From: a bacterium
Lineage (GTDB): Bacteria; SAR324; NAC60-12
Direction: 5' to 3'
Length of the DNA stretch: 64,000 nt
Assembly (NCBI GenBank): GCA_965205865.1
Contig: CBDBHR010000026.1
Location: 224,997 to 288,996 of the forward strand
The notes beneath the pieces are model-generated. The model was given only the letters and a program-made list of their open reading frames with translations, searched no databases and was not told the DNA's origin. Made by a program: the position numbers and the translations under genes. Positions 60,824 to 63,530 of the stretch are shown piece after piece. Within the stretch, counting starts at the first letter, position 1. Each line of letters opens with the position of its first letter.

Positions 60824-61298
60824 GTTTCCTCGAATCATCGTCAAACAATTTCGTCAATTTCTTTTTTGTTTCCATGCTTTTGTGACTTCAGATAATAAGT
60901 ACCTGAGCATAAGTTTTTACCCATTCCAACCCCACCGGAACGCCGGCCTCCTACCTCCCCTTGAATGCAAGCCCAGTTGAAAAAAGGGGAGGGACACGCT
61001 CCCCTCCTTGTTTAAGGAAGGGTTGGGGTGGTCCGGCATTCTGGAGGTCAGAAAGTAGCATCTAAAATGTTAAAAAACTTTTGGCCTAGTACTTAGGTAC
61101 TCTTTCCATAAAGTGACTCAATTTATCAGAAGTCCATTCGGGAATCAAATTTAATCTTATGATCCACGAAGGGCACGAAGGAAAGTATTATAGGTGCGCA
61201 CCCTAATTTACCGCGACTGGTCCATCCCCATTCCCTCATCAAATGATCGATTTTTCTGGGCTCCAAACTTTGGGAGGGGGTCAGGAGGGGGTCAGGCC

Positions 61299-63255
61299 GT
61301 GCGCCAGGAAAGCTGGCAAGAAATAGAGAGTGAAAGTCTCTTACTCGGTAAGGCAGTAACGACCCGCCGAGTCCCCGAGTCATGAGTGGTTATTCGCAAG
61401 GATAGGCGCTAAGCGTTGACAAGGGAGAACATAGGCTCGGTATCGAGCTCCGAAATCATAGTTTCAGGCGCTGACCTTGTGGTCTGGTGGGGAAGGCAAT
61501 ATCAACCGAAGGCGTTAGCGTGAGTCTCGGCTGAGCCTGGCGGAGTCAAAGACCCGGTGCATGTGTGGAAGTTTCTTGATCGGAACCTGGGAGATCCTAA
61601 AGACGACTGTCAACATTCCATTGGTAGTCGGATCGGGAAAATTTATAAATAACCCCGATATCTACGTCTTCAGGAAGTCGGACAAGTTCGTAGTAGCGAT
61701 GAAGCGGCGAACAATGAGATCATTTGTTGAGAGTAACAATGCAAAGGAAATCAACGGAGCCTGTGGAGCAAAGGGACTTGGCTGAGAGGAATTCTGCTTG
61801 CCCTCCTGTGTTCGGAACTCGGAGGCCGGTAAAATCAGAGAGCGGTTTAAGCAGGGTGCGCCAAAGGGCGAAGAGGACTCCCCATCTTCAATTCAACAAT
61901 CTCTTTCATCACATCAACCCTGACTTACTGCGGAGAGCTTACTTTGATCTCAATCGCAACTCAGCGGCGGGAGTGGACGAGGAGACCTGGAATGAGTATG
62001 GCATAAATCTCCTGGAGCGGATTAACGATCTGCACGGGAGGATCCACCAAGAACGTTATCGTCCTCAGCCTTCTCTGCGAGTGTGGGTTCCTAAACCGGA
62101 TGGCCGTCAAAGGCCAATCGGAATAGCCGCACTTGAAGACAAGATCGTACAACAAGCCCTCGTTTGGACGTTGGAATCGATCTATGAGGAGGATTTCCTT
62201 GGGTTTAGTTACGGGTTCCGACCCGGACGAAGCCAACATCAAGCCTTAGACGCTTTGTATGTGGCCATTACCCAACGGAAAGTGAGCTACATCTTAGATG
62301 CGGATATTCAAGGATTTTTCGACACAATTCAGCATGATTGGATGCTGAAATTTATCAAGCATCGAATCTCCGACAAAAGGATTCTGCGTTTAGTAGAGAA
62401 AACGTTGCGCGCCGGAGTCATCGAAGATGGGAAGTGGTCTGAAACGGTGGTCGGAACACCACAAGGTTCGGTAGTTTCTCCAATCTATTCAAATATCTAC
62501 CTGCACTATGTTTTAGATCTATGGGTCAATCAATGGAGAAGGCGGGAAGCTCGGGGGGAAGTTTACATCATTCGCTATGCGGATGATTTCGTCGTGGGTT
62601 TTCAATATTCTGAAGATGGCCAGAAATTTAATCGCCAACTAAGAGAACGCCTCTCTCAATTTGGACTGACTTTACATGAAGAGAAAACACGCCTCATCGA
62701 GTTCGGGCGATTTGCCGCCGATAACCGGGAAAAACAAGGTCTGGGAAAACCGGAAAGTTTCGACTTTTCAGGATTCACTCATGTCTGTGACACTCGGATA
62801 AAGGATGGAAAATTCAAGCTCACCCGTCTCACCATTTCCAAAAGGTTGCGAAAGAAGCTCAAAGAGATCAAACTTGAAGCGAAACGCAAACGTCATGAAA
62901 ATGCGCATGAACAAGGAAAATGGCTCAGGTCTGTTTTAAACGGTCTGTACAACTACTATGGAGTCCCCGGCAACCGGAGTTCCTTGAATGCTTTTCGCAC
63001 GGAAATCCATCGGACGTGGTTCAAATCACTAAGACGGAGGAGTCACAAAGCAAAGAGGATGAACTGGGAACGCTTCAAAGTACTGGTCAAACTACACATT
63101 CCTTCTGTAAGGACAACCCACCCGTATCCGAATCAACGTTTGAGCGTCTGACTCGAAGCAGGAGCCGGATGCGTTAGCAGCGCACGTCCGGATTTGTACC
63201 GGAGGAATGACGAAAGGTGGCTGGAAACCTCTATAAGTCAGTTCTTTACGGTGAC
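61299..63255 (+). mobile_element. Complete group II intron (IIB-like, no endonuclease domain), 1957 nt
   Basis: 5' GTGCG, domain V GAGCCGGATGCG...CGCACGTCCGG, 3' GGTGAC; removing it restores GGGGTCAGGCC|TTTGATTA. Confidence 0.93.
61739..63151 (+). CDS. ltrA: Group II intron reverse transcriptase/maturase
   Basis: SAAGVD, PKPDGRQRPIGI, SYGFRPGRS, DADIQGFFD, GTPQG, RYADD, maturase X domain. Confidence 0.95.
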   Translation: MQRKSTEPVEQRDLAERNSACPPVFGTRRPVKSESGLSRVRQRAKRTPHLQFNNLFHHINPDLLRRAYFDLNRNSAAGVDEETWNEYGINLLERINDLHGRIHQERYRPQPSLRVWVPKPDGRQRPIGIAALEDKIVQQALVWTLESIYEEDFLGFSYGFRPGRSQHQALDALYVAITQRKVSYILDADIQGFFDTIQHDWMLKFIKHRISDKRILRLVEKTLRAGVIEDGKWSETVVGTPQGSVVSPIYSNIYLHYVLDLWVNQWRRREARGEVYIIRYADDFVVGFQYSEDGQKFNRQLRERLSQFGLTLHEEKTRLIEFGRFAADNREKQGLGKPESFDFSGFTHVCDTRIKDGKFKLTRLTISKRLRKKLKEIKLEAKRKRHENAHEQGKWLRSVLNGLYNYYGVPGNRSSLNAFRTEIHRTWFKSLRRRSHKAKRMNWERFKVLVKLHIPSVRTTHPYPNQRLSV

Positions 63256-63530
63256 TTTGATTATTTGATTAGGAATGAGTCCAGTTTTTTTGCCCCCATT
63301 TCATTTAATCAAAGGCCTGACCCCCTTTAAGGCCTGACCCCCTTCCGGCGAGTCCTGAGCCGTTCAGAGTGTGCAACAGTTCCGGCTTGCCGGTAGCGGG
63401 GTTGCGCCAGCGGGCTCTCATGCTCCACCGCACAGGACCACCACCCGGTATGGCAGGCCCAGTCGTTGCCGTCGAAGCGGTTAAATTGTCAGGCTAGACT
63501 GTTGGATTTGATTAGTCTTCACTATTTTTC

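Follow-up and report, generated by a model that had tools for sequence, protein, structure and literature searches.

A group II intron that very probably homes to the conserved tip of TIRYT-type Y1 transposons in a SAR324 bacterium

A review from 2015 lists homing sites, terminators and attC as the target specificities of bacterial group II introns (PMC4424553). Those of groups IIE and IIF have a small IIB-like ribozyme of 450–700 nucleotides (nt) without the open reading frame (ORF), a 5-nt domain V loop, and a reverse transcriptase (RT) without an endonuclease domain (PMC3753933). RAYT-like Y1 transposases accompanied by inverted repeats headed GGGGWSAS are known as TIRYT or TIRtron elements (Di Nocera et al., 2013, PMC3733652), and transposases bearing a DnaA_C domain form subclass 2.1.2 (Quentin et al., 2018, PMC6006769). 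Literature searches for group II introns together with miniature transposable elements with inverted repeats (MITEs), repetitive extragenic palindromes (REPs), RAYT, IS200 and TIRYT returned no report of introns in TIRYT/TIRtron repeats, and the only link to REPs that was found is weak, with two of nine P. putida intron copies lying near them (PMC1525189). The DNA analyzed in this study is a stretch of 64,000 nt, hereafter the window, from a SAR324 bacterium (GTDB lineage Bacteria; SAR324; NAC60-12; GenBank assembly GCA_965205865.1, contig CBDBHR010000026.1, positions 224,997 to 288,996 of the forward strand). It carries a group II intron that, in all likelihood, homes to the conserved tip of TIRYT-type Y1 transposons and their derivatives, the copy in the window being placed in the left arm of an 80-nt palindrome.

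The interval 61299–63255 (+) is an intact group II intron of 1957 nt. It begins with GTGCG (GUGCG in the RNA) at 61299 and ends with ACGGTGAC up to 63255, the final AC occupying 63254–63255. The boundaries were also set by comparing an empty with an occupied site in twin transposons at locus L019 (the loci compared in this study carry numbers with the prefix L), and the 3' boundary is checked independently by a tandem copy, in which the next intron begins directly after GAC. Domains I–IV match Rfam model RF02005 at 61333–61555 with 158.5 bits (gathering score 49; full model, 1–225), and the model for domains V/VI, RF00029, matches over its full length with 28.5 bits (E 0.0045), which is under its gathering score of 40, the match ending exactly at 63255. 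Domains V and VI (63160–63255, +) display the AGC triad, a 5-nt domain V loop, and a bulged A 8 nt before the 3' end. Within domain IV, an ORF at 61739–63151 (+) encodes a 470-amino-acid RT/maturase that contains YADD and matches Pfam RVT_1 and NCBIfam TIGR04416 (344 bits, cutoff 300); it has no endonuclease domain, and an identical protein is encoded at the separate locus L001. By inspection, the 544 nt outside the ORF, the UAGCA loop (5 nt) of domain V and the endonuclease-less RT of 470 amino acids make the intron look IIE/IIF-like. The near-identical copies that occupy many sites indicate that it is probably mobile, and these copies, together with empty paralogous sites and the known biology of such introns, point to splicing and retrohoming as likely activities.

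Deletion of 61299–63255 in silico joins the 5' exon GGGGTCAGGCC (61288–61298, +), which consists of the 11 outermost nt of the left inverted repeat, to TTTGATTA, a 42-nt core and then TAATCAAAGGCCTGACCCC. This restores a palindrome of 80 nt, its 19-bp arms being perfectly complementary; the rest of it lies at 63256–63324 (+), with the right repeat at 63306–63324. The original prediction had described this restored repeat and the same intron boundaries, giving the core as ~41 nt. The exact 19-mer is found in the window at 41146 (+), 59757 (+) and 63306 (-), where shuffled sequences would lead one to expect 0.02 occurrences, and the 11-nt tip is found nine times against an expected 1.1. Two of these ~9 tips are occupied within the window.

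The sites at 41146 and 59757 had been taken for uninterrupted copies of the sequence that the intron splits. They do carry the 19-mer, but they share only ~23 bp with the intron-bearing palindrome and ~130 bp with each other, and therefore are not the same miniature element; they are the ends of longer related elements. The first is the empty end of a degraded TIRYT transposon (41146–41470, +), in which a Y1 transposase remnant (41333–41491, -; 68% identity over amino acids 77–128 by tblastn) is preserved and which is cut by an unrelated insertion sequence (IS) at 41471–43124. This IS encodes a frameshifted DDE_5/DDE_Tnp_1 transposase (ORFs 41496–42431 and 42343–43068, -), and was rejected as the owner of the repeat at 41146, as it has 15-bp inverted repeats of its own and merely interrupts the Y1 element. 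The second is an internal-deletion derivative of 540 bp (59757–60296, +), with both tips empty and the right tip at 60283–60296. A further empty transposon end, GGGGTCAGGCC followed by TGTGACTTTGGGAATTTAAG, lies at 15574–15620 (+) and belongs to a subfamily that is occupied in L020 and L028/L029. Empty copies of the 80-nt palindrome itself are also present, at L031 597–676, L031 3283–3361 and L015 2438–2518, the last of these in a Dehalococcoidia metagenome-assembled genome (MAG).

The transposon from which these repeats come was found intact at L019 7360–8407, where a gene for a 312-amino-acid protein with Y1_Tnp (Pfam E 1.4e-14) and Bac_DnaA_C (E 2.1e-8) lies between 21-bp inverted repeats, GGGGTCAGGCTTGAAAGTTTG. 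Both the HUH motif (as HVH) and the catalytic tyrosine (in GRYK) are present in the transposase, which scores 73.4 bits, just below the cutoff of 80, against NCBIfam REP_Tyr_transpos (REP-associated tyrosine transposase). The heads of the repeats, GGGGTCAG, at L019 7360/8407, L019 11711/13450, L033 and L034 fit GGGGWSAS, and at L034, from Deltaproteobacteria bacterium SM23_61, a 48%-identical transposase is flanked by GGGGGTCAGGCTTGCATATTTTG and GCAAGCCTGACCCC. The transposase family returned 6229 hits, carrying the JGI name 'REP element-mobilizing transposase RayT', and is multicopy in the source lineage, with protein clusters of 40 and 49 members. With the L019 transposase as query, tblastn detected remnants of the Y1 gene in the 3' exons of intron copies L002, L006, L008 and L010.

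The miniature elements are internal-deletion derivatives of these autonomous TIRYT Y1 transposons, and the 80-nt palindrome is the smallest of them. The 80-nt and 540-bp elements resemble MITEs in being short, non-coding and multicopy, with TIRYT-like ends and with both occupied and empty copies, and the larger derivatives contain remnants of the Y1 gene. Target-site duplications were absent around all copies inspected, the left flanks being rich in A and the right ones in T. Y1 transposons make no target-site duplication, so none would be expected. An identity with REPs or REPINs, which are 20–40-nt imperfect palindromes headed by GTAG or CGTC and set in inverted pairs, was considered and rejected, given that the head GGGGTCAG is not GTAG/CGTC and that single arms are not palindromic, only the hairpin shape of the doublet being REPIN-like. 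Among GTDB representatives, a set that excludes the source genome, no more than seven loci have the 19-mer, and these belong to MAGs from several phyla; no Y1 gene was found within reach of it in these seven, which would make them solo repeats or hairpins.

Further copies of the intron were sought through the exact RT protein and the cluster to which it belongs at 90% identity, with ~80 members in a small number of ENA metagenome assemblies; the contigs of these members gave ~25 copies in addition to that of the window. These are 97–100% identical and lie at distinct sites, those of 98–100% identity alone occupying more than 20 others. Rather than having unrelated flanks, the ~25 copies stand at the same position of the repeat, as would be expected from homing to a dispersed element's terminal inverted repeat, which was originally proposed from the window alone. 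In all readable copies the 5' exon is (G)GGGTCAGGC followed by C or T and the 3' exon starts with T, with the intron constantly placed after nt 11 of the repeat, between GGGGTCAGGCY and T. Beyond this point the 3' exons belong to at least six repeat subfamilies, reading TTTGATTATTTGATTAG, TTTGATTATTTCATTTG, TTTGATTAAATGATTA, TGAAAGTTTG, TGCATATTTG/TGCAAGTTTG and TG[TC]GACTTTGGG; by type, they comprise the TTTGATTA subfamily at both of its ends, together with TGAAAG, TGCATA, TGCAAG and TG[TC]GAC. Empty copies of every subfamily were likewise found in this data set, and the end type that is empty at 41146 and 59757 is occupied in L010, so that the empty repeat is indeed used as a target. Both ends of the transposon are used, on the gene-3' side (L019, L010, L008) as well as the gene-5' side (L033, L006, L002). 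The most direct comparison comes from a twin of the autonomous element, 4 kb away from it at L019 11711–13450, which has an identical transposase and carries a 692-nt ORF-less form of the intron exactly between nt 11 and 12 of its left repeat. Taken together, the copies show that the target is the outermost 11 nt and the next T of the TIRYT terminal repeat, miniature derivatives included. This tip is conserved across divergent transposase subfamilies, and each element therefore offers two intergenic landing sites, one per strand.

The bases of the exon that are read by the intron can be assigned in part. The predicted exon-binding site 1 (EBS1), GGUCUG at 61481–61486 (+), is the terminal loop of a hairpin in the Rfam alignment and pairs with the last six bases of the exon, the intron-binding site 1 (IBS1) CAGGCC at 61293–61298. 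Across the copies, an EBS1 beginning with G accompanies exon position -1 as C at 11 sites and as T at two, while the form beginning with A (AGUCUG) occurs only with T (4/4), an association with a Fisher p of 0.006 that overstates the significance because the copies are related to one another. Two copies lie at sites without a recognizable repeat, L007 (GGGTTCGGACC, CGGACC) and L011 (AGGGTCAGATC, CAGATC), and both have GGGT upstream and retain all six EBS1 pairs. Amongst relatives, EBS1 is hypervariable and changes in step with their exons. Pairing and covariation thus show that the putative EBS1 (GGUCUG/AGUCUG) recognizes the last six exon bases, and the T at +1 (IBS3) and some reader of the upstream GGG(G)T are probably also part of recognition. 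In relatives L040 and L046, the internal loop that precedes the EBS1 hairpin is a candidate EBS2, its bases covarying with positions -7 to -11. GACCC at intron nt 66–70 was tried as EBS2 and rejected, as it lies in a conserved stem and does not covary with the exon.

An ORF-less form of the intron uses the same sites. In the window it is a mini-intron of 703 nt (14013–14715, +) that lacks nt 575–1824, starts with ATGCG rather than GTGCG, and has the EBS1 AGUCUG, which matches the final T of its exon. That exon, the repeat tip GGGGTCAGGCT at 14002–14012 (+), had been described as identical to that of the full copy; the tip site is the same, but the exon differs by one base. The ORF-less form as a whole measures 692–703 nt and outside the window lacks nt 572–1835, and a private substitution is common to its copies. 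It was found at at least five different sites (window 14013, L019, L020, L021, L025, L033), which points to mobilization in trans, and an RT supplied from another copy may well have carried the ORF-less versions to the same sites. Copies truncated at the 5' end were also found (L003 from nt 71, L019/L023 from nt 392, L030–L032 from nt 401, and L010 with only the last 26 nt), and would be a sign of retro-mobility. Whereas the original prediction envisaged a three-tier system, of which repeat, intron and mini-intron do occur at the same sites, this was incomplete, the autonomous Y1 transposon making four tiers.

Tandem arrays of the intron occur in the window and at L005/L006, L020, L021 and L025. 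The Rfam matches place the 5' half of the intron at 14013 and again at 14716, directly in tandem, and the second of these is a 5' fragment of a further copy (14716–15183, +; nt 1–438 with a 30-nt insert) that is cut off by another intron on the minus strand. The copy pattern suggests how such arrays may arise, as a new copy could land on the 5' exon regenerated upstream of a resident one. Of this other group II intron, which is unrelated to the first, the 3' part is present (15183–15573, -), inserted in domain IV of the tandem fragment, with its domains V/VI at 15183–15253 (RF00029, 38.7 bits, E 1.3e-5). It is truncated on its 5' side, where it adjoins the transposon tip at 15574, so that introns are nested within introns here. 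The maturase-like C-terminal peptide read upstream of these domains (minus strand, 15240–15570) has no Pfam match, and this reading is based on Rfam and inspection.

It had also been proposed that the hairpin of the repeat may expose the target as single-stranded DNA. As single-stranded DNA, the 80-nt element does fold into a hairpin with a 19-bp stem (-21.9 kcal/mol, z = -7.35), but the target is wholly inside that stem, and the other targets have no significant local hairpin, the equally used ends of the longer elements giving z values of -1.8 and +0.4. The intron thus has no need of a hairpin, which is also unlikely to make the site accessible, and this part of the original prediction is not upheld. 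The same observations bear on whether the intron behaves like those of class IIC, recognizing a DNA stem-loop of terminator or attC type rather than a sequence, with the palindromes acting as REP or terminator structures. The strong fold of the restored element would agree with this, as would the nearest solved RT, which comes from a class IIC intron (7uim, E 7.5e-45, only slightly better than other solved RTs), and the placement of the distant relatives L086, L087 and L092 (51–55% RT identity) directly after a small hairpin preceded by GGGG. Class IIC introns, however, insert right after a stem-loop, use an IBS1 of 3–4 nt and have no EBS2, whereas here the insertion is within the 5' arm of the stem and not beyond it, the IBS1 is a full 6 bp supported by covariation, hairpin-free targets are used equally, and the flanks are Y1 transposon ends and not terminators. 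Class IIC-like behavior is accordingly considered very improbable. In the distant relatives, the small hairpins that directly precede the introns (L086 393–413, L087 9–29, L092 114–135, and also L059 1–19) are GC-rich and preceded by GGGG(C), which suggests a REP-like or TIR-like target (TIR, terminal inverted repeat) read at a different offset.

Homing to the transposon tip has also to be weighed against common descent, under which the flanks travel with the intron and the unit that spreads is an element already carrying it, through the Y1 transposase or through duplication and recombination. Since the intron is located between the ends of the transposon, any movement of the element would take it along, and L003, L004 and L009 have an identical 3' flank, L003 and L004 being ~5 kb apart on one contig, which means that element and intron were duplicated together at least once. 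As a general account this is nonetheless unlikely. Introns that are 98–100% identical occur in at least six subfamilies whose inner sequences are unrelated or ~10% diverged, and the two copies of one autonomous element, with identical transposases, differ only by the intron. In addition, the copies at L007 and L011 keep the EBS1 pairing without a recognizable repeat, and EBS1 variants match tip variants. Several points still weigh against homing as set out here. Splicing, retrohoming and transposition are all deduced from sequence, and within a subfamily, transposition or duplication could have spread some copies as element and intron together. The 13 occupied and ~26 genuine empty tips in the sample are not an estimate of occupancy, as the related loci were picked for containing the intron, and the metagenome assemblies may mix several strains. 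EBS2 was not located in this intron, where the loop homologous to the relatives' candidate does not match GGGG, and the mini-intron of the window, beginning with A instead of G, may no longer splice.

How far the association reaches beyond the source genome was examined with a scan of JGI metagenomes using the RT alignment, which returned 80 loci at 50–65% identity. A junction was counted as clean when six EBS1–IBS1 pairs were found no more than 4 nt from the start estimated by nhmmer, with at least 11 nt of 5' exon, and 22 loci had such a junction. Seven of the 22 follow nt 11 of a GGGGWSRS head, where 0.09 would be expected by chance; their tips, each with its matching EBS1, are GGGGTCGGACC with GGUCCG, GGGGTCGGGCC with GGUCCG, GGGGACAGTCC with GGACUG, GGGGTCGGTGC with GCACCG, and TGGGACAGTCA with UGGCUG. 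Desulfuromonas versatilis offers a further case, in which an intron with 59% RT identity follows CGGGTCGGACC and has the EBS1 GGUCCG, forming six pairs, and, at 0.4 and 1.3 kb downstream, inverted copies that are empty, GGGGTCGGACCAAGT, enclose a Y1_Tnp gene. Many of the related introns (L040, L042, L045–L047, L053, L055, L065, and also L058, L071, L087, L076, L082 and L104) start with GAAAGCG, GAUAGCG or GAGCG, not GUGYG, these starts being judged by the 6-bp EBS1–IBS1 pairing directly upstream and, in L040, also by empty repeat copies. At L039, an 82%-identical intron from Deltaproteobacteria bacterium TL4 (474–612 and 1984–3976) is split by the insertion of an element that carries HTH_23/HTH_32 ORFs; the intron has the EBS1 UGGCUG and follows the 5' exon AAGGACAGCCA, which is a degenerate head of the GGGGACAG type.

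These relatives bear on whether the pattern might be an effect of abundance, whereby the intron has an ordinary homing site that by chance forms part of a repeat common in one genome, and no enduring tie to the transposon family. Homing-site specificity alone does account for the pattern within the genome, and 15 of the 22 clean-junction relatives are at unrelated sequences, such as CTCCT-type sites. Against this, relatives with only 56–61% RT identity, from metagenomes and Desulfuromonas, are at the same position of GGGGTCGGACC, GGGGACAGTCC and GGGGTCGGTGC, the EBS1 of each having changed to match its tip, at a frequency well above that expected by chance. The presence of such divergent relatives on variant tips with matching EBS1 means that the link between this clade and TIRYT elements is older than the present copies, and a mere abundance effect is improbable. 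A more far-reaching proposal is that an IIE/IIF-like clade has co-evolved with TIRYT transposons across phyla, its EBS1 retuned to tip variants, riding the transposon for horizontal transfer, perhaps coupled to it by reverse-splicing into single-stranded DNA exposed by the Y1 transposase or by the lagging-strand template, and disabling the end that it occupies. This is put forward tentatively, as a possibility that we regard as rather doubtful. Were it true, bacterial group II introns would have a further natural target specificity, the fourth after homing sites, terminators and attC, and a transposon family would have a natural antagonist.

For homing to the transposon tip, a mechanism can be sketched by analogy. 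The intron RmInt1 is thought to prime from strands at the replication fork (PMC1802570, PMC8914252), and by comparison with it and with IIC introns, complementary DNA synthesis would here probably be primed from nascent strands at replication forks. Insertion places 0.7–2 kb between the tip and the remainder of the repeat, which probably disables that end of the transposon. By adopting a site that another mobile element conserves and multiplies in intergenic DNA, an endonuclease-less intron could reach a high copy number without harm to the host, and the outcome may be modeled as a nested parasitism of four tiers, namely transposon, miniature derivative, intron and mini-intron. TIRYT/TIRtron elements have been little studied; the multicopy genes and many deletion derivatives seen here are indirect evidence of active transposons, and the intron-split ends provide a natural experiment on which part of the repeat the transposase needs. 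Compact introns that read a site of 11–12 nt mostly by RNA pairing may also be of interest as retargetable tools.

Many of the transposon ends have short partial tips stacked 3–20 nt outside them, reading GGGGTCA or GGGGTCAGGC with a few further bases. Around the intron-bearing palindrome, one such 'stutter', GGGGTCAGGAG, lies just outside the element at 61277–61287 (+), and another partial tip lies beyond its right end at 63331–63341 (-). Further stutters are at L028 9515–9554, L021 9525–9549, L004 1017–1049, L001 6250–6268, L020 9535–9549 and L008 3375–3394. They may be footprints of repeated insertion and excision, or may reflect a preference of the elements for inserting beside their own kind.

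The remainder of the window is rich in repeats of other kinds. Paralogous cassettes for peptide/oligopeptide ATP-binding cassette (ABC) transporters (SBP_bac_5, BPD_transp_1) fill 16500–49400 and 55300–58900, occurring 3–7 times at 60–99% identity, and on other contigs these cassettes are found beside copies of the intron. The Acido-Lenti-1 RNA motif has four matches (45.8–50.5 bits, gathering score 37), arranged as two inverted pairs with members 161 nt apart, 28430–28475 (-) with 28641–28686 (+) and 36113–36158 (-) with 36324–36369 (+), one pair in each copy of a segmental duplication of ~7.7 kb. An inverted repeat pair of ~760 bp, 89–96% complementary, lies at 20217–20976 and 51134–51906, 30 kb apart, and a 345-amino-acid ORF overlapping it (19776–20813, -) has no Pfam match. 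A DDE_Tnp_1_4 transposase is encoded at 8778–10160. Upstream of the 540-bp derivative, a Phd/YefM antitoxin gene (59407–59646) is followed by a 38-codon frame (59643–59756) that ends exactly where the derivative begins; its product resembles a PIN/VapC N-terminus by inspection and has no Pfam match, and the remainder of a PIN/VapC-like gene was not found after the element. The closest named proteins to the serine hydroxymethyltransferase of the window are from SAR324 cluster bacteria (76–77%) and Deltaproteobacteria bacterium TL4 (75%), which makes the host a relative of these.

Amongst described systems, the host elements are closest to TIRYT/TIRtrons, with which they share a Y1 transposase with Bac_DnaA_C, GGGGWSAS-headed inverted repeats, and families of solo or dimeric repeats. 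The elements in those reports (PMC3733652, PMC6006769) are mostly low-copy and introns are unmentioned, whereas here they are multicopy, with many deletion derivatives, and colonized by an intron. A union of a self-splicing ribozyme with a Y1-transposase mobile element is also known from IStrons, in which a group I intron is joined to an IS200/IS605-type element (PMC4227781), but the IStron is a single unit, moved by the transposase and spliced out whole, while the intron in this study would move by its own RT, remove only itself, and be a parasite of the transposon end. Dozens of copies per genome, with ORF-less derivatives mobilized in trans by the RT of relatives, have been described for the introns of Thermosynechococcus elongatus (Mohr, Ghanem and Lambowitz, 2010, PMC2882425); there the EBS have diversified and many sites are used, and here one conserved multicopy site is reused.

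The IIC introns of attC sites (e.g., S.ma.I2) and terminators likewise have no endonuclease domain and find many harmless sites in a repeated palindromic motif (PMC4424553). They rely on a stem-loop and a short IBS1, inserting either beyond the stem-loop or, in a folded attC, at a fixed position, whereas here it is sequence that is read (the 6-bp IBS1 and the conserved GGGT upstream), insertion is inside the repeat arm, and the hairpin is unneeded. RmInt1 of Sinorhizobium meliloti is similar in having no endonuclease domain, a site within a multicopy transposable element (ISRm2011-2), and a target read by EBS/IBS pairing. It differs in being a class D intron, where the present one is IIE/IIF-like, and in lying inside the transposase gene of one DDE-type IS rather than in the non-coding repeat tip of Y1 (HUH) elements, which comprise many subfamilies with two sites per element. 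Homing by EBS/IBS pairing, and homing into IS, were thus known before; what appears to be new is the conserved tip of a Y1 transposon as the site, its use at the level of a clade, and the nesting of four tiers.

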